A DNA stretch of 64,000 bases from a virus. The notes beneath the pieces are model-generated. The model did no database searches and was not told the origin of the DNA. It saw only the letters and a program-made list of their open reading frames with translations. Shown piece after piece: positions 13,497-35,688 of the stretch. The DNA lies in IMG/VR virus record IMGVR_UViG_3300000062_000001, positions 1-64,000 of that record; one strand, 5' to 3'. The stretch's first letter is position 1. The number at the start of each line of letters is the position of its first letter. The position numbers and the translations under genes are program-made.

Positions 13497-13752
13497 TATT
13501 TTTAAATTCTATAATATGATTACCTCTATAAAAATGAATCTTCTTTATCTTTCTTCTTTTAGGATCAATAGTTAATATTTCCCCTTGAGTAATTTTACCC
13601 CCACTTTCAGGTAACAATTGCAACCTTACATCCTCAATCATCTTACTTCTTAGATACCCGACATCAAAATCTAACTTGGCTATATCATCCTTGAAATACT
13701 TAATACCCCAACCATGTCTTGACATAGCTATAGTGCCTGGTTTTATTTCCAT
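13459..13752 (-). CDS. hypothetical protein
   Basis: 97-aa ORF overlapping the polA start by 38 nt. Confidence 0.45.
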   Translation of the reverse strand: MEIKPGTIAMSRHGWGIKYFKDDIAKLDFDVGYLRSKMIEDVRLQLLPESGGKITQGEILTIDPKRRKIKKIHFYRGNHIIEFKNNDISSNKSEETV

Positions 13753-14359: not shown

Positions 14360-15017
14360 TTATTGACACATAGAATAGCCACAAGCAATACACTTAGCAC
14401 AACCATTCTCTTTTATTAGTTTTTCTCCACAATCAGGGCAAACTTCTATACTTACCTCTTTGTTATATTTATTCAGAACTCTACTTATTACAGACACAAA
14501 AGATACTATACTGTCATTAATTTTCTTTGCTACTTTAATAATAAACTTAATATCTGCTCCATGTCTTAATAACATAGATGTATATAATGCACAGGCTTTC
14601 TCTAAATCACTGTTCCCCTGGTTATTTAAATTATTAATAGTAAATTCTTCACTCTTAAACTGATAATGATTCTTTTTAATTTTAATAATTTCCCCTGAAC
14701 ATTCTTTAGGTAAATCTGTATTAACATCAAGTATATATGCAAAAATTTCATAGGGTTTTCCTTCTAATAATCCTATTATAACTGCATATTTTACACCATT
14801 ATATTTACTAATATGTAAATTGGCTTCTAATTTTCTTGGTCTTTTGGGAGCATTATAAGATTTAAAAGTAGCAGTATTTGTATTATTTACTAATATACCA
14901 CTTCTACAGTTATCTCTGTATACTGTTACCCCCTTAATTCCTAATTTATTAGCTTTAGTATAAATATCAGCTACTACATCTTTACTTATGGTTTCAGGAA
15001 GATTAATTGTTGAACTT
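14360..15017 (-). CDS. nrdJ: class II ribonucleotide reductase, exon 2
   Basis: The frame is open from 15017 and encodes SSTINLPETISKDVVADIYTKANKLGIKGVTVYRD... ending CPDCGEKLIKENGCAKCIACGYSMCQ. Track ORF 14360..14575 is only its tail. Confidence 0.8.
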
Positions 15018-16082
15018 CAATTTCATCTATATTTTCATATAGTTTGGACTATATCATCACCCTTAACTTAATAGTAGGGCGTTGGACGCTAATTCTGGTT
15101 ATTAAGAGGACTTTACCTCTCCAGTAGTCTCTGAACCTTTTCATAGTGTACTATGAACTTGGCTGCTGATTAGCATGATTACTAATTAATTTACAAATAT
15201 TAATAAAATATTCTTGAGTAAAGTGCATTTTCATAAGATTTATGTCTTTATAAAGCCATTGTATATTACCTTCAATATAACCTTTAGATGAATCAATTCT
15301 ATCTAAAGATGCTATATGTTTATTTACATTGTTTTTATCTCTTTGGCTTCTATTAATATAAATATCTAATCCTGTTAAATTACACTTACACTTTTGATTA
15401 ATGAAAATAGTTTCCAGATATTCTGGAGAAACAGTAAACTCTATACCTCTATTTTGCGCATTTTTAAAAAGTCTATTATATTCTCCTTTAGATATGTGAT
15501 ATGTAATCATATTATGTCTTTTAGGTTTTTTATCACTTTGTAAAAAACAATTGTTACATTTAGGTAATCTGTTCTTTCTACTAAAGGTACTATGACCTGT
15601 ATGATAAATATGTCCACAATCACATTGAACTTTATAAAAAGTATTTCCTTTATATTGGTAATGCTCTCCTATAATAGTCAAATTTAATACCTTATATCCT
15701 ATTTTATATTTTCCAGACTCAATTCTTCTTTTCTTTTGAGAACAACTTCTACAAGATTTAGAAAAATTAGCTCTATTTATATAATCTTTGTGATATACCT
15801 GCGTTTTACCACAAGAACATTTTAGGGTATAACACTCTTTTCCATTAATACTAAATGGCTCTGATACTACAGACCATTCATTTACGGTACTTCCTATTGA
15901 TAAATCTCTATTCATACTTTTGTATTTTAATTGTTAAAAACATAAAGGTAAGTAAAATATTTGACATATACAATAGATTTACAAAATATTTTATATTATA
16001 CTTTATAATTAATAATTTTAGCTTTCCAGCAATTCATCCAATTTTCATTAATAGATTACTCTATTATGCCACAAGTTCTTTT
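15018..16082 (-). mobile_element. group I intron in nrdJ
   Basis: Core elements, given as minus-strand sense: P gaattgctggaaag (16022-16035), Q aatcagcagcc (15161-15171), R ggttcagagactac (15124-15137), S gatgatatagtcc (15046-15058). P1 pairs exon gccaU with intron GUGGC, P10 pairs aacuu with exon 2 aaguu, and a G precedes the 3' splice site. The spliced frame is continuous at 897 codons. Confidence 0.85.
15151..15915 (-). CDS. intron-encoded HNH homing endonuclease
   Basis: SLDRIDSSKGYIEGNIQWLYKDINLMK HNH motif and repeated CxxC zinc knuckles. Lies between the P and Q elements, and its 3' end overlaps Q. Confidence 0.75.
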   Translation of the reverse strand: MNRDLSIGSTVNEWSVVSEPFSINGKECYTLKCSCGKTQVYHKDYINRANFSKSCRSCSQKKRRIESGKYKIGYKVLNLTIIGEHYQYKGNTFYKVQCDCGHIYHTGHSTFSRKNRLPKCNNCFLQSDKKPKRHNMITYHISKGEYNRLFKNAQNRGIEFTVSPEYLETIFINQKCKCNLTGLDIYINRSQRDKNNVNKHIASLDRIDSSKGYIEGNIQWLYKDINLMKMHFTQEYFINICKLISNHANQQPSS

Positions 16083-18115
16083 ATGGCTGAAGTTATATAT
16101 TTCTGAATTAATGCTTGCGTTTCAAGTCTTACATTATAATCCAAATCAGCTGATGATTGTTTATAATAAGGTGATTGCTCATAGGCTAATTGCACATTCT
16201 CTTTAGATATGTGATTACTCATTACTTCATTGTAATCCCAAGTCTTATTCATCCACTCTTTTAATCCAGGATGAATTACTAAATATTCTTTAAACCCTAC
16301 TCCATTTTGGTCAATAAAATCAGGTTTTTCATCAGTGTTACACTTCTTTCTTCTAGTGTAATGTGGTTGAAACATTGGTTCAATTCCTGAAGTACAATTT
16401 CCTGCCAGAATACTTAGGCTTCCTGTGGGTCCTAAAGTTGAAATTCCTGCATTTCTCCTACCATATTTAACCATTCTATTAACCTGATTAGGGTATTCAT
16501 TTAGTATAAATTTATACCACTTATTAACTGGTTGGGCATTAGTACTCCCGTCTATATAAGAATATTCTTTCATTCTGTTCCATAAAGGAAAAGCCCCCCT
16601 AAGAATAGCCATATCAATAGAAGCATCAAGTTCAGCTTCTAATTTGAGCCTAAACAATTGATCAGTAATTTCTTTATCACCATAAGGTAATCCTAACATA
16701 GCTAACATATCAGCATAACCTGTTATCTCATTACCTATTCTTCTACCTTTTAAACCTATTTCTCTGATCTTCCACCAAAGTTTAAACTCATCAGAAGAAT
16801 TAATTATTCTTTGTAAATCATCACAATCCATTAATCCTGAAAATCCTTGAGAACAAGGTTTATTTATATAGTCTTGATATTTAGGATTAATCTTAATGAG
16901 TATTCTATCAACAGCTTCTATTTCTAGATCTACTAAATTATCTGCTAATACAGTACATTCATAGAATATTTTATAAGCTAATTCTAAATCTAATCCAGCC
17001 TCTTTAGTATAAGGGTTTTTTATTAATGATTTAAGATTCACACACATTAATTTACAAGCCTCGCTTGCTGCAAGGGGTAATTCACTGCAAGGATTTGTGC
17101 AACAGGGAGTTAACTCTTTGTATACACTCGTAGGATCATAATTTAATACATTATTCCAAAACAAAATTCCAGGTTCTGCATAACCCCAAGCACTATTAAT
17201 GATCTTATTCCAAAGTTCCTTAGCTTTAATTCTTTTATAATATTTTATAGTACTTTTATCAGAAAGTTTATATGTATACAACTTATTATATTCAATAAGC
17301 TCGAAAAATTCTTTTACACTTGTACCTTCTAATTTAGCTAAATCTATTGGTAAAACCCCATTATCCTTGCAAGGAAATGTTAAATAATAATCTTTATCTT
17401 CCTCTACAGCATCTAAAAAATCTTTATTTAACTTAATAGATAAATTAGCTCCTGTTATTTTAGTTAAATCATTTTTAATAGTAATGAATTCTTCTATGTC
17501 TGGGTGATTAATATCCATTGTAATCATTAAAGCTGCTCTCCTTCCTCCCTGACCTATCACATCAGTTATTTTAGAGTATAAATCAAGAAAGCTTACTGCT
17601 CCAGTACTACTATTAGCAGCATTATTTACACTAGCTCCACCAGGTCTTAAATTACTAATATCAAAGCCTACACCTCCCCTTCTCTTGCTTATTTGAGCTA
17701 TACTTTTAGTAGTATTAAATATACTTTCTATATTATCTTCAGGAGGATCAATTACAAAACAATTACTTAATGAAACTGGTTTATTGGCTCCTAGTCCTGC
17801 TAGTACTGAACCTCCTGGTATAATATATTTAAAATCTTTAAATAATTTATATATATAATCATACACACCGTCTTCATGCTCAAATGTTAAATATCTATCT
17901 TGACCATACTGAGAAAGCCTTGAATAATCTCCATCACACTCCTCTATATAGTTTTTTTCTATTCTTGTAAATTCCTTGGCCAATCTTTGCCAAAGATCTT
18001 TTGGAGTTTCTGTAGGGTTATTGTTTTTATCTTTATGAGAGTACTTTTTTAGAAATACATCTGTTGCTAGAGTATCTCCTTTAAAATATTCTAATACTTG
18101 TTCTTCTACATTCAT
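16083..18115 (-). CDS. nrdJ: class II (B12-dependent type) ribonucleotide reductase, exon 1
   Basis: VSLSNCFVID and CCTNPCSELPL active-site motifs. The track ORF runs 19 nt into the intron before its stop. Confidence 0.85.
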
Positions 18116-26418: not shown

Positions 26419-26703
26419 TTAAAAAACTTTTATTAAATTGTTATCTTTATCATGTAAATATACTATATTATATTTTCTTACCAAATGTTCAATTGCTGCA
26501 CTATAAACATTGTAGAACACATTTGATTGTACTCCATTAATTATCATAGTGGGTTGTTTTATTGCTTCAGCTAAATAAGTATCTATATCTGGATCTTTAT
26601 CCGTTTTGATATCTGTAAGAAACTCTTTAGCTAATTGCATAGCTTGGTTTATATGTATATTAGTATTATTCTTTATGATATTAATTATTTCTTCTCTTGT
26701 CAT
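26419..26703 (-). CDS. hypothetical protein
   Basis: 94-aa ORF. Confidence 0.5.
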   Translation of the reverse strand: MTREEIINIIKNNTNIHINQAMQLAKEFLTDIKTDKDPDIDTYLAEAIKQPTMIINGVQSNVFYNVYSAAIEHLVRKYNIVYLHDKDNNLIKVF

Positions 26704-27401
26704 TAAATTTTGTAATAACTTCTAATAGTTTTATCTACTAAAGCTAAACTATTAGGTATTCTAAAATCCTTAAACATTCCTATTGGCGTTTTAGCGCTAC
26801 TCCTATTCTTTCTTGTTTCAAAGGTAAATTCACATGTGCCATCCCCATCATCTTCTACATGTGTAAATAGACATATAGGAAAGAATCCTTCAGGAGGGAC
26901 TCTTTTAGACTTTTTACCTATAACTGATAAAGCCTTTGTTTCTTTACCATCTATATCTGTTATCAATTCAGTATGACCAAATATATACGCAATTTGATCA
27001 TTTCTTAATTCTTGATTACACAGAATAGTTAATTCAAGTACATCATTGGCTACATCTCTCCAATTATCGAAACTCAATTTCTTTCTATCATTAAATTCCT
27101 TATATGATAAATAACAATTTAATGTATCAAAAGCTATTGATTTAATTTCAGGATTTTTAGCTGCAAATAATACTAAATTTTTAATATCTTTAAATTCATC
27201 TATTTCTATGTAGTTCTTATTTTCTTTACACCACATTCCTGCTGGAAAGGGCAATTCCTTTTTATCTAGATTAACTATAATATGTGCTTTAGGATTCATA
27301 CCTGAGTAATTATCCATATCATATTTACCATCTAGATTAATTATAGTTGAGGTAGATTTACCATCTCCAGATGGTCCAAATATACCACACAATTTGCTCA
27401 T
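26703..27401 (-). CDS. RecA-fold P-loop ATPase (AAA_24/Sak4-like)
   Basis: GIFGPSGDGKST Walker A at the N-terminus, with size and context typical of phage recombination ATPases. Confidence 0.5.
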   Translation of the reverse strand: MSKLCGIFGPSGDGKSTSTIINLDGKYDMDNYSGMNPKAHIIVNLDKKELPFPAGMWCKENKNYIEIDEFKDIKNLVLFAAKNPEIKSIAFDTLNCYLSYKEFNDRKKLSFDNWRDVANDVLELTILCNQELRNDQIAYIFGHTELITDIDGKETKALSVIGKKSKRVPPEGFFPICLFTHVEDDGDGTCEFTFETRKNRSSAKTPIGMFKDFRIPNSLALVDKTIRSYYKI

Positions 27402-27422: not shown

Positions 27423-27878
27423 TTACCATGAAGATTCATAATATATATCAAATGGACATTGCTCATAGTCCTCTATTACTTGTTTTAATATTTTTATAGT
27501 GTTATCAATTTCTTTAAAATACCACTCATCATACTCTGTATTACCAAAGAAAAATCCTTCTCGAGTGGGCAGTAATTCTTTTGCAAGAGAATGGTTTTCT
27601 TTAATTGATATACATATTGCTAACAAATCTTTTATATGTTTAACATTTACCAAATGTCTTTCACAATTATCAACCCCGTTTTGTACATTGTCTACAAACC
27701 ATTTATGTAAGGCATTAAACTTTCTCCAATCATGTAAAGACTCTTCTATAGCATTTATTTTATTTGTATTAATATTAAATTTTTTACCTTTAATTTTTAA
27801 AGAGAACTTAATATCTTTAGGGTCTATGTATTCAGCCCCAATATAAGTACTTTTTATTAACCAATGATCCAATCCCAT
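27423..27878 (-). CDS. hypothetical protein
   Basis: 151-aa ORF. Confidence 0.5.
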   Translation of the reverse strand: MGLDHWLIKSTYIGAEYIDPKDIKFSLKIKGKKFNINTNKINAIEESLHDWRKFNALHKWFVDNVQNGVDNCERHLVNVKHIKDLLAICISIKENHSLAKELLPTREGFFFGNTEYDEWYFKEIDNTIKILKQVIEDYEQCPFDIYYESSW

Positions 27879-27879
27879 T

Positions 27880-28113
27880 TTAATTTAATTTATTATAGTA
27901 ATCATTTATTTTATTATCTTTAGGTAAAGGCAACTCTTCAAAATAATTAACATCCCCATAAAATAATAATGGACAAGTTTCATTACCTCTTCCTTCTCTA
28001 TTCTCTATTATTTGAATAAATCTTACATTATCTTTTAATTTAGTTATATCATATCCTTTATAAGATTTAACCTCATGTTTTGAAGGATTATATATACCTA
28101 TTAAAGTATTAAA
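27880..28113 (-). CDS. DnaB-like replicative helicase, exon 2
   Basis: Encodes FNTLIGIYNPSKHE... after the proposed 3' splice site. The ATG of track ORF 27880..28116 is assigned to the intron, and its G is the terminal intron G. Confidence 0.7.
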   Translation of the reverse strand, partial: FNTLIGIYNPSKHEVKSYKGYDITKLKDNVRFIQIIENREGRGNETCPLLFYGDVNYFEELPLPKDNKINDYYNKLN

Positions 28114-29317
28114 CATTTTGTTATCTTAGAGGCTCTTTATCCCCTAATTCTACATTTTCATTTTGTTATATATGTAGTTCAGACTATATCATCACTATAA
28201 AATATAGTGTCTCACGCTCGTGTTTTTTCATCTTATATTTCTACTTAGATTACTAAATTAGTCGTTGAACCTTTTTATTGTTTCCAATAAACTTGGCTGC
28301 TGATTATCTTCTTCAAGACTTTCCAGCAATTCATGAGATTTTACAAGGACTTTAACACTTGTAAATTAATTTTATAATACATAGATTCTAATAATTCTGG
28401 AAAAATAATTGAAACAAATTTTTTAAAATCTTTTATTGATAAATAAATAGAATTATTATTAAATTTAGTAAAAGTAAGATTGAATCTTTCTTTCATAAAA
28501 TTTATAAGTAATTTTATTTCTAAATCATTAAAACAGCATGTAGCTATTGATACTGAATTAGATTGTTTTGAACCATCATCCATAAAAAAATATGTTAATG
28601 ATACTTCATCAAAATTATCTAAATATTCTTTAGTTATACATTTCTTGTTATTAAGATATAATTGATTATAAATTTTTAAATAATATGGATTTGCAGAACA
28701 ATTTATCCAATATCCTTCATAATATATTCCATTTCTTGAATCTGGTGTATTCCTTTTTCTATATTTAAATTTTGCACCCAATGATTTTAAAATTTCATAT
28801 TTATGATAAGCATATTCTTGTTGTTTTATTCCATGTCCACAAACAAAATCTGGATTTATACAGTTTTTACCTATTCTAAGAGAACTATCTCCTAATAAAG
28901 TTCCATATAACATACTTTTTTGATAAGGAGTAGCCTCTATCATTTTAGCAATATTATAATTTTCTCTATAAAAAGAGTTCTTTATTCTCGCTGCATATAT
29001 CCCACTTTCTTTAACATTAAACTTTTCTGCTATTTCTTTATCCGTTAAACCTTTTTCAACTAACTGTTTCAATTCTGTAATTGGGATTTTTCTCCCTAAA
29101 CCTTGTTTATAATTGGATGGAAAATTATTTTTCTTTCTCCAAGTTCTTATAGATTCATGGTGTTTACCAATTTCTTTTCCTATACGAGCATCACTATACC
29201 CTTTTTGATATAACTCGTTAATTATTAATTCTTTTTCTATTGTATTCATTTTACTTTTATTTAAGTATTTTTACAAATATAAGTAAAATATTTTTAATTT
29301 ACAAATTTTTTTACCCT
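28114..29317 (-). mobile_element. group I intron in the helicase gene
   Basis: Core elements, sense strand: P gaattgctggaaag (28319-28332), Q aatcagcagcc (28295-28305), R ggttcaacgactaa (28258-28271), S gatgatatagtct (28181-28193). P1 pairs exon aaggaU with GUCCUU (28345-28350), and P10 pairs uuaaa with exon 2 uuuaa. The spliced frame is continuous (292 + 77 codons). Confidence 0.8.
28341..29249 (-). CDS. intron-encoded LAGLIDADG homing endonuclease with N-terminal HTH repeats
   Basis: LLGDSSLRIG and FFMDDGSKQ dodecapeptide motifs, plus two HTH-like repeats (YSDARIGKEIG and LTDKEIAEKFN). Confidence 0.8.
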   Translation of the reverse strand: MNTIEKELIINELYQKGYSDARIGKEIGKHHESIRTWRKKNNFPSNYKQGLGRKIPITELKQLVEKGLTDKEIAEKFNVKESGIYAARIKNSFYRENYNIAKMIEATPYQKSMLYGTLLGDSSLRIGKNCINPDFVCGHGIKQQEYAYHKYEILKSLGAKFKYRKRNTPDSRNGIYYEGYWINCSANPYYLKIYNQLYLNNKKCITKEYLDNFDEVSLTYFFMDDGSKQSNSVSIATCCFNDLEIKLLINFMKERFNLTFTKFNNNSIYLSIKDFKKFVSIIFPELLESMYYKINLQVLKSL

Positions 29318-30193
29318 ATCCTTACAAGTTCCTTTATTATCAGCTAATCCATCTGAAGTAGGAGCTAATCTTCCCAATTTAAAAGAATCATTACTTTCTT
29401 TATCAAGACTTTGTTGTTGAATATTACATATAGTCCACTTATAAACATTCCTAAGATATACACAATCATAACTACTGAATCTTCCAATAGTGTTGTATAA
29501 AGTACTTTTTTCTCCCCCCATACTTTTTTCTGGGGTAAGAAGTGATATATGATCTACTATAAGAATATTGTATTGATTAGGACTATTAAAAGAATACTTA
29601 TCAATAACTCTTTTCTTGGTTATTTCCCCTGTAGTGTTATCTACCCAATTCATGTCCTTATAAGAAACTGTGCCCGTTTGATTTGAAACGTTAATACACT
29701 CTTTATAAATTCCTGTAGGGTGCCTTATATGTTCATAAACTGTAAGATGTCTATCTATATAGTCTAAAAATCCTGTAAAATTAGAATTTGACATCTTATC
29801 TAGTACTTCAGTTCTTAGGGGATTGTTTACATTCAAACTATTCAATTCAATATCTGGTACTCTAGTACCAAAGGTTATATATAACCACCATCCTATTATT
29901 CTATCCCATAATTGATTTATTCCCATCTCTAAACTAAAATATAAGATTCTAGGTTCAATTTTCCCAGGATTAAGGTAGGAATATAATAGTGGTTGTAAAC
30001 AGAACATGTATAATGCAAGCTGACTTTTGCCAGCCTTTTGACTACCTGTTATACCATAATACTTGGCTTGTTGAATGCCTGGAAATACACTTGTATATCT
30101 TTCAAATGGGCAGGGAATACAGTTTATTTCTCCCCTCTCTACTCTTTCTTTATTCTCCTTATAATTACTGATTCTATCTCTCCATATACTCAT
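29318..30193 (-). CDS. DnaB-like replicative helicase, exon 1
   Basis: Walker A GSQKAGKSQLAL and Walker B ILIVDHISLL. The track ORF continues 8 codons into the intron. Confidence 0.7.
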
Positions 30194-35286: not shown

Positions 35287-35320
35287 AATATGATGTTTTT
35301 AATTATTTAATTATTTAAAG

Positions 35321-35688
35321 TGGAGGTGCAGAGATTCGAACTCTGGTCTTACAATATTTCTTTATTAAAACTTTTACATGTTTATTCAGTTTATTAACTG
35401 ACAAAATAGGGCTGAATGGTTTTAACATTCAACTTCCACCAATTAGTTTTTATTTAGAGATAAACTAACAAACTGTCTCCTGCTCCAATTTTTATATCTT
35501 AGGTATGATATTACTATTTCCTGTTTCTAAGCATAGATGCTCAACTACTATGCAGCTAATCTATAAGCTGTCTGAGTAGAAGGAGTTAAATTAATAACCT
35601 TGCCTTTTATAGTTTACTATTTTAAGGTATAGTTACCTTTACATGATTTTAATACTTACTCTATTATAATCTAACCCATACCACCCCC
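35321..35688 (-). ncRNA. ssrA: tmRNA (ssrA-like transfer-messenger RNA)
   Basis: The 5' GGGGGUG pairs with the 3' CACCUCC, including a G3:U70 wobble (the alanine identity pair). T-arm CAGAG-UUCGAAU-CUCUG preceded by GAC. P2 pairing UUAUAAUA/UAUUGUAA. Candidate resume codon GGC at RNA position 85 (35604). Tag frame GKVINLTPSTQTAYRLAA followed by TAG TAG (35545-35550), which sits inside hairpin GCATAG...CTATGC. 368 nt, CCA not encoded. Confidence 0.8.

Follow-up and report, generated by a model that had tools for sequence, protein, structure and literature searches.

A probable phage-type group I intron in a crAss-like replicative helicase gene, with its guide sequence in the last codons of a LAGLIDADG endonuclease

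We have analysed a stretch of 64,000 nucleotides (nt) of viral DNA, positions 1 to 64,000 of the IMG/VR virus record IMGVR_UViG_3300000062_000001 (hereafter the window), in which a gene for a DnaB-family replicative helicase is split by a group I intron of 1204 nt (28114..29317). The helicase gene and all the features of its intron lie on the minus strand, and coordinates are those of the window. We consider it very likely that this is a mobile intron of group I and of phage IA type, with P7.1 and P9.1 helices and without P2, inserted after a conserved aspartate of a crAss-like helicase, with a homing endonuclease open reading frame (ORF) in the loop of its P1 helix and with the guide sequence in the last codons of this ORF. 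The boundaries of the intron, its guide, its fold and the architecture that it shares with its family can be read directly in the sequences compared. Many phage introns share this layout, which was known before, and the intron of the window is a clear example of it rather than a new mechanism. The window has a G+C content of 29%, and the best annotated matches of its replication genes are Crassvirales phages of Bacteroides and Flavobacterium phages.

The first exon taken from the ORF list (29318..30193) comprises 292 codons and ends ...GGA ACU UGU AAG GAU, and the second (27880..28113) has 77 codons plus the stop and starts with UUUAAUACU. Between them the intron begins with AGGGUAAAA and ends with ...AACAAAAUG, that is, ...AAAAUG with the terminal G at 28114. 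As read in the genome, the exon 1 ORF (30193..29294) continues into the intron up to an in-frame UAA (29294..29296) eight codons past the 5' splice site, and these last eight codons (RVKKFVN-stop) have no counterpart in relatives; such a stop soon after the 5' splice site has been called typical (PMC3073962). Exon 2 is contained in a downstream ORF of 78 aa (28116..27880). When 29318 is joined to 28113, an in-frame helicase of 369 aa is obtained (...NKGTCKD|FNTL...), the predicted sequence of the ligated exons being GTAAGGAT|TTTAATAC, or over a longer span GGAACTTGTAAGGAT|TTTAATACTTTA. The nearest uninterrupted relatives in the protein collection measure 371-373 aa, and the closest of them (P0002, 65% identity) has over the junction the residues DGLADNKGTCKDFNTLFG, the same as those of the spliced product. 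At the DNA level this relative (L128) reads GGAACTTGTAAGGAT|TTTAA, with 20 nt identical to the joined exons of the window. Since an uninterrupted relative matches both residues and DNA at this point, the junction is fixed without recourse to any RNA model.

The same is seen at the protein level with more distant helicases. The match of exon 1 to the Pfam domain DnaB_C is weak, but its alignment to crAss-like replicative helicases is free of gaps, and the complete spliced protein shows no gap at the junction when aligned to annotated crAss-like helicases. In the four aligned helicase sequences neither the Asp that precedes the junction nor the Asn at the second position beyond it varies. The insertion point falls after the invariant Asp codon of a conserved ...K(G)T.(K/R)D motif. 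Ligation of the exons thus restores a conserved uninterrupted coding sequence, as judged by the gap-free alignment and the 20-nt identity. A preliminary description of this DNA had placed a group I intron in a DnaB-like helicase and had proposed precisely the 29318|28113 junction with the product ...NKGTCKD-FNTL...; both proposals are borne out, the first also by the Rfam match of the core presented below. An intein was considered and rejected, because the exon 1 frame stops eight codons into the insertion, the endonuclease has an ORF and a start codon of its own, and a ribozyme is present.

When a sub-region of 1.7 kb was searched alone, the Rfam model RF00028 (Intron_gpI) matched at 28366..28165 over its full length (1-253) with 62.7 bits and an E-value of 4e-15, the gathering score of the model being 50. 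Scans of the whole 64 kb window missed both of its group I introns (the second one is treated below) at gathering as well as at E-value thresholds, because the speed filters hide real introns in AT-rich DNA; similarly, a scan of four crAss loci together retrieved no intron, and matches came from short sub-regions only. The Rfam alignment and the single-sequence fold define a ribozyme core from P3 to P9.1 (28126..28338), composed of P3 (28338-28332 / 28216-28210), P4 (28331-28323 / 28303-28295), P5 (28319-28306), P6 (28292-28274), P7 (28271-28259 / 28186-28177), P7.1 (28257-28244), P8 (28209-28193), P9 (28177-28150) and P9.1 (28147-28126). The single-sequence fold yields P3, P4-P5, P6, P7.1, P8, P9 and P9.1 and is more stable than all of the shuffled sequences (200/200). 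Regarding the features that define the IA2 subgroup of T4-like phage introns (P7.1/P7.2 between P7 and P3', P9.1 and P2), a 40-nt insert with a P7.1-like hairpin and P9.1 are present and P2 is absent. The core lies entirely 3' of the endonuclease ORF, which ends at 28341, as had been proposed beforehand.

The helices from P3 to P9 have compensatory support in an alignment of 13 related introns analysed with RNAalifold. Compensatory changes were found in 17 of the 35 predicted pairs, mainly in P3, P5, P9 and P9.1, where most pairs have between one and seven double changes. P4 is invariant in these 13 introns, and so are the strands of the P7 pseudoknot, which are therefore uninformative on covariation. 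In group I introns guanosine attacks after the U of the P1 U-G pair, P10 aligns exon 2 and the terminal G sets the 3' splice site (PMC3984707). With the elements described here, the intron of the window would be expected to self-splice in the same guanosine-dependent way.

The most characteristic feature of the intron is the position of its internal guide. The end of exon 1 (AAGGAU, 29323-29318) pairs with GUCCUU at 28345..28350, which provides the 3' strand of P1 with the U-G pair at the splice site, and the adjacent UUAAA (28351..28355) pairs in all five positions (5/5) with the beginning of exon 2 (UUUAA, 28113-28109) to form P10. This guide is found at intron position 968-973, where it overlaps the codons AAG-TCC-TTG of the endonuclease, and the last four endonuclease codons (L-K-S-L) contain the complete sequence that guides both exons, UUAAA-GUCCUU. 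One nucleotide separates this sequence from the stop codon (TAA, 28343-28341), which lies within a conserved UAAA linker and is followed 2 nt later by P3. Allowing G-U pairs, three 6-mers of the intron can pair with AAGGAU in all six positions. GUCCUU is the only one of these that starts with G and the only one preceded by a 5/5 match to exon 2; the other two are both AUUUUU and have no P10. An 11-nt guide for P10 plus P1 appears anywhere in 1.9% of shuffled introns, and at one fixed position the expectation is about 1.6e-5. By direct reading P1 can be extended to 10 bp (UUGUAAGGAU x GUCCUUGUAA), in which case it includes the stop codon. The order of the 5' splice site (29318|29317), the ORF (29249-28341) and the guide (28350-28345) means that the AAGGAU/GUCCUU helix closes over approximately 960 nt, with the endonuclease ORF in its loop.

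Could the architecture of this intron be conventional instead, with a P1 next to the 5' splice site and followed by P2? The ribonucleotide reductase intron of the same window does have a conventional P1-P2 at its 5' end, and the Rfam alignment of the helicase intron draws a hairpin over the GUCCUU region. Neither the 68 nt that precede the ORF nor any other part of the intron contains a further G-initiated complement of AAGGAU, and the six nucleotides between guide and P3 (GUAAAA) leave no room for a P2, which explains its absence. The guide register is moreover conserved in related introns in which the guide itself varies together with the exons (see below), and we therefore regard a conventional layout as extremely unlikely. 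The ORF-in-P1 reading, with GUCCUU as the sole guide to both exons some 970 nt into the intron and in the last endonuclease codons near the stop, had been advanced in the preliminary description and has stood up to all these comparisons.

A way to evaluate this architecture is to look for it in other introns. A scan of viral contigs with a motif spanning P4 to P6 provided at least 120 loci and, together with other loci, at least 112 distinct intron contexts. In many of the contexts among the matches listed, a P2 hairpin comes after a short P1. Others of these matches form a second group, without P2 and with coding sequence that reaches the linker; the ORFs that end at or within the core in this group are LAGLIDADG, HNH or GIY-YIG endonucleases, and the presence of three endonuclease families at the same position indicates independent ORF invasions. 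The same layout was identified in at least 13 other introns of viral contigs and crAss-like phages, located in other genes, with an overlap between ORF and core that goes from 0 to more than 200 nt. The host genes include a dUTPase, a second helicase interrupted at the same D|AD site (L041), a helicase interrupted elsewhere (L075) and a crAss ATPase (L102).

We have examined the guides of 14 introns, taking in each case the 6-mer at register -18 from P4 and comparing it with the exons of its own intron; a guide passed when it gave a 6/6 P1 (with U-G) no more than 250 nt upstream of the endonuclease ORF and the joined frame was open. With their own exons, 13 of the 14 guides find a P1 and nine also a 5-bp P10. 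When guides were swapped between loci, a P1 was obtained in 45/162 combinations and a 5-bp P10 in addition in 5/162. An earlier version of the test without the positional limit was too lenient, 7% of the swapped guides giving a 5-bp P10. The locus that fails the restricted test is L041, whose predicted 5' splice site is approximately 720 nt upstream of the called ORF start. In the alignment of 13 introns (A4), from which L024 was left out given that a second LAGLIDADG ORF appears to interrupt its core, the guide has an invariant first G and then five hypervariable nucleotides, and conservation is found again in the UAAA linker and in P4. The register of the guide is fixed and its sequence changes with the exons of each intron. 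The earlier proposal that the endonuclease ORF fills the P1 loop is much better backed by these comparisons than by the single sequence, and the layout is one instance of a widespread design.

One of these loci is of interest on its own. In a related phage, the IMG/VR contig L102, an intron of the same layout with a LAGLIDADG_2 ORF interrupts the ATPase gene adjacent to the helicase; its guide is GGCCAC, with a 6-bp P10 and the junction ...FDQWRDVA|NDVIELN. The ATPase gene of the window (26703-27401, minus strand) is uninterrupted at this site.

The ORF inside the P1 loop (28341..29249) codes for a LAGLIDADG homing endonuclease of 302 aa plus the stop, with an N-terminal helix-turn-helix. It matches the Pfam family PF03161 (LAGLIDADG_2) with an E-value of 1e-26 and 94.2 bits (cut-off 25), both LAGLIDADG motifs can be read in the translation (LLGDSSL and FFMDDGS), and its nearest solved structure is the intron-encoded endonuclease PDB 6x1j (E-value 5e-8). 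A protein pattern search of viral contigs with this endonuclease gave no confirmed relative. Its C terminus ends ...YYKINLQVLKSL, as opposed to ...KYKLNVT in the equivalent enzyme of the phage PhiCrAssBcn14, and such different ends agree with a tail whose sequence is set by the RNA guide and not by what the protein does, in line with the prediction of the "core creep" idea (PMC3073962). The enzyme presumably cuts intron-less alleles at GGAACTTGTAAGGAT|TTTAA, thereby driving homing, and the uninterrupted locus L128 supplies a candidate target.

The integrity of all these parts bears on the possibility that the intron is a decayed remnant that no longer splices, leaving the helicase in two polypeptides or non-functional. 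Splicing is a prediction from the sequence, and an ATG ahead of exon 2 (28116-28114) could start the 78-aa fragment. Nevertheless, the G of this ATG is the terminal G of the intron, the ribozyme scores above the Rfam gathering score and preserves all the core helices, the exon matches of P1 and P10 are perfect, the two exons are intact and in phase, with conservation that extends across the junction, and the endonuclease ORF is intact with its two motifs. We consequently find a decayed intron very unlikely.

The location of the guide has consequences for gene expression, and what follows is a model built on geometry and on known systems. Ribosomes translating exon 1 would stop at the in-frame UAA eight codons into the intron. 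Transcription would reach the guide approximately 970 nt beyond the splice site, and P1 could therefore form only once the whole ORF has been transcribed. The guide and the 5' strand of P3 would lie under any ribosome that is completing the endonuclease ORF, which would make translation of the endonuclease and splicing mutually exclusive on the same RNA molecule. That ribosomes block P1/P10 in this manner, as the preliminary description had proposed, is plausible, as it follows from the geometry. The concept is not new, because ORFs in P1 that overlap P1/P2 and splicing impaired by endonuclease translation, as in T4 I-TevI, have both been published (PMC3073962, PMC3984707), and reviews deal with overlaps between ORF and core and with what they mean for regulation.

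Two elements in the 68-nt leader of the endonuclease ORF may be relevant to this conflict. The first is a promoter-like element of Bacteroidetes type, TTTG-N20-TATATTTG (29274..29305), about 24 nt upstream of the endonuclease AUG, which matches the consensus of the primary sigma factor of Bacteroides (-33 TTTG, -7 TAnnTTTG; PMC7366714) and would act as an internal promoter. The pattern TTTG-N18-22-TAnnTTTG occurs nine times in the window, where 3.1 are expected, a number reached in 0/100 shuffles. The exact 14-mer AAATATTTTACTTA has two copies in the 64 kb, at 29280-29293 and 15949-15962 (both on the minus strand), located 30-45 nt upstream of the two intron endonuclease ORFs of the window and overlapping the promoter pattern. 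Similar blocks are found upstream of the endonuclease ORFs in PhiCrAssBcn14, L102 and p-crAssphage. A role of the 14-mer as a widespread motif of the window was rejected, with only two exact copies and near-matches at chance level. The second element is a predicted hairpin formed by UAUUUUACUU with AAGUAAAAUG (29247..29290) that covers the start codon of the endonuclease and may restrain its translation (-8.9 kcal/mol, z -2.8; 6/200 shuffles fold as well). Hairpins covering the start are predicted in four of five related leaders, each of them weak.

In read-through pre-mRNA the hairpin would hide the endonuclease AUG. Transcription starting at the internal promoter would produce RNAs without the 5' arm of the hairpin and without the 5' exon, which could be translated at no cost to the splicing of the helicase. 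By analogy with T4 I-TevI, the conflict between translation and splicing is thus likely to be solved by separation, and the promoter-like element and the start hairpin suggest avoidance of the conflict rather than a positive coupling. The opposite idea, that endonuclease translation is a functional gate in which ribosomes hold P1/P10 open and endonuclease synthesis sets the time of helicase production or is linked to it, draws on the fact that a terminating ribosome must cover the guide and P3, with the stop 1 nt after the one and 2 nt before the other, and on the recurrence of the same overlap in many related introns. The same relatives, however, have overlaps of 0 to more than 200 nt, which is what passive "core creep" would produce and not a tuned switch. 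Besides, in the one experimentally tested system, T4 td/I-TevI, ribosome entry only harms splicing and is suppressed (PMC3073962), and the start-codon hairpin and the promoter-like element point to separation. We consider such a gate improbable.

A broader proposal, which we put forward only tentatively and regard as doubtful, is that this layout is a recurrent and selected design in a large class of phage introns without P2, including those of crAss-like phages, and works as a transcript-specific switch. Its parts would be the ORF in the P1 loop, the guide in dispensable last codons, the stop in the UAAA linker and a promoter of host type, the -7 box of which pairs with the start codon of the endonuclease. 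Read-through pre-mRNA would splice and give no endonuclease, and internally started RNA would give endonuclease and would not splice. If true, phages of Bacteroidetes would have arrived independently at the scheme of T4 I-TevI, and the start of splicing would wait for the transcription of approximately 1 kb of ORF.

Several observations weigh against the interpretation of this intron that we prefer. Both the Rfam alignment and the minimum-energy fold contain a local hairpin, UUUACAAG...CUUGUAAA (28363-28339), which extends over the stop codon and the 3' half of the guide and would keep this half occupied. The exon sequence CUUGUAA immediately upstream of P1 is a further complement of its 5' arm, and the hairpin could be a structure that competes with P1 or a transient one that exists before P1 forms. 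The guide test allows G-U pairs and several candidate sites, and its background with swapped guides is 28% for P1. The promoter-like element of the second intron fits the consensus only with mismatches, and the start-codon hairpins are AU-rich and individually weak (z +0.6 to -2.8). Finally, splicing, the activity of the endonuclease and the internal start of transcription are inferred from sequence, as are catalysis, homing and regulation. Weighed together with the evidence above, we still consider the phage IA-type intron with its endonuclease in the P1 loop very likely.

A close counterpart is found in the phages PhiCrAssBcn14-18 (Kehishuvirus, host Bacteroides intestinalis), which have an intron at the same helicase site (after ...RD) with a LAGLIDADG endonuclease 41% identical to that of the window and annotated as "hypothetical protein". 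There exon 1 ends in CGUGAU, the guide GUCACG is in the last two sense codons with the stop directly after, exon 2 resumes at the same helicase position as in the window, and a TTTTACTTAnnTTTG block similar to that of the window precedes the ORF. The ribozyme is more divergent (Rfam group I 45.5 bits, E-value 1e-10) and P10 is weak. Unlike the helicase gene of the window, that of these phages is interrupted once more, at the P-loop site, by an intron that contains a GIY-YIG ORF. In the PhiCrAssBcn14 record (L132, OQ221549.1 86645-92493) the helicase is annotated as fragments, a small "hypothetical protein" coding sequence (CDS), probably the first exon, and two "replicative DNA helicase" CDSs; the CDSs are separated by a GIY-YIG gene and the LAGLIDADG endonuclease, which implies two introns. 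A GIY-YIG insertion is also present at the Walker A (P-loop) site of the helicase of cr111_1 (L001, MT774387.1).

The introns in the dUTPase genes of crAss-like phages, from the same phage order, have cores up to 82% identical over the aligned part and, by eye, share with the intron of the window the ORF 5' of the core, the lack of P2, the guide register and the exon-matched guides. Their ORF runs 130-190 nt into the core, unlike that of the window. The dUTPase intron of p-crAssphage is already annotated as an intron with an HNH endonuclease (BK010471) and differs from ours in host gene and endonuclease family. Yutin et al. 2021 (PMC7886860) reported crAss-like phages with group I introns in their core genes, which they identified by the endonuclease domains, and the text read contains no description of the RNA architecture. 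In the open-access literature we found no paper on the helicase intron of the window or on the P1-loop architecture in crAss-like phages.

Outside the phages of this order, the tRNA-fMet intron of Synechocystis PCC 6803 has a PD-(D/E)XK ORF in P1 that overlaps P1/P2 by 61 nt (PMC3073962, Table 1). Like the intron of the window, it is a bacterial group I intron with the ORF in P1 and the 3' end of the ORF overlapping the ribozyme; it differs in its tRNA gene, its endonuclease family and the presence of P2. In the window the overlap is restricted to the guide (approximately 13 nt) and the stop is in the linker before P3. The large subunit (LSU) rDNA intron of Physarum polycephalum also has an ORF, that of I-PpoI, in the P1 loop (PMC3073962, Table 1), but that intron belongs to nuclear rDNA, its enzyme is of the His-Cys box type, the ORF does not overlap the core, and transcription and translation are not coupled. 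For the td intron of T4, PMC3073962 and PMC3984707 report that ribosomes on core sequences cause a pronounced splicing defect (Gibb and Edgell 2010, cited there) and that a hairpin over the ribosome-binding site restrains translation of I-TevI in read-through RNA. The td intron resembles that of the window in being of phage IA type, in residing in a DNA-metabolism gene and in having an ORF whose 3' end supplies ribozyme nucleotides. I-TevI is, unlike the endonuclease of the window, a GIY-YIG enzyme encoded in the P6 loop and overlapping P6a/P7. The window has a LAGLIDADG ORF in P1 that overlaps the guide, and its regulation is a prediction.

The value of the intron of the window is that of a well-supported example, together with a correction of annotation. 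The helicases of the window phage, of PhiCrAssBcn14-18 and of cr111_1 have been deposited as fragments plus a "hypothetical protein" or "endonuclease", when they are really single spliced genes, and the records of PhiCrAssBcn14 and cr111_1 need join() annotations. A guide 1 kb away from the splice site defeats tools that seek P1 beside the 5' exon. With guides that match their exons and endonucleases from three families, the other introns of this layout, at least 13 in number, amount to natural compensatory "experiments" on P1/P10, and the set also informs about how ORFs settle into ribozymes ("core creep"). The homologous intron in cultured phages of Bacteroides makes the conflict between translation and splicing testable outside T4.

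The second group I intron of the window (15018-16082, minus strand) interrupts a ribonucleotide reductase gene with exons 18115..16083 and 15017..14360. Its splice sites are 16083|16082 and 15018|15017, and its Rfam match (41.7 bits, E-value 1e-8) is below the gathering score. At the 5' end lie a short P1 of conventional type (GCCAU/GUGGC) and a P2; P10 (AAGUU/AACUU) comprises 5 bp, and the junction reads ...TSAI|SSTINLPE, with the joined frame open up to the stop at 14360. An ORF of 254 aa (15915..15151), provisionally described as endonuclease-like, is located in the P5 loop. This intron is an internal contrast to that of the helicase, with a related core in the same genome and the ORF in a different loop. 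A third candidate intron, suggested by a near-match to the P7 3' motif at 13678-13689, was rejected, there being no Rfam match at that place.

Downstream of the helicase, a 151-aa ORF (27423-27878, minus strand) without any family match separates this gene from the ATPase gene. The ATPase gene is placed directly after that of the helicase in cr128_1, DAC15 and cr85_1, and there the C-terminal tail of the helicase is approximately 40 aa longer. Elsewhere in the window there is a tmRNA-like gene (35318-35688, minus strand), detected by the Rfam model RF00023 with 57.3 bits (gathering score 47). ARAGORN does not confirm the Rfam call for this gene, the middle of which is poorly aligned (mean posterior probability 0.57, high composition bias). 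Its tRNA-like ends are good, GGGGGUG... and ...GUUCGAAUCUCUGCACCUCCA.

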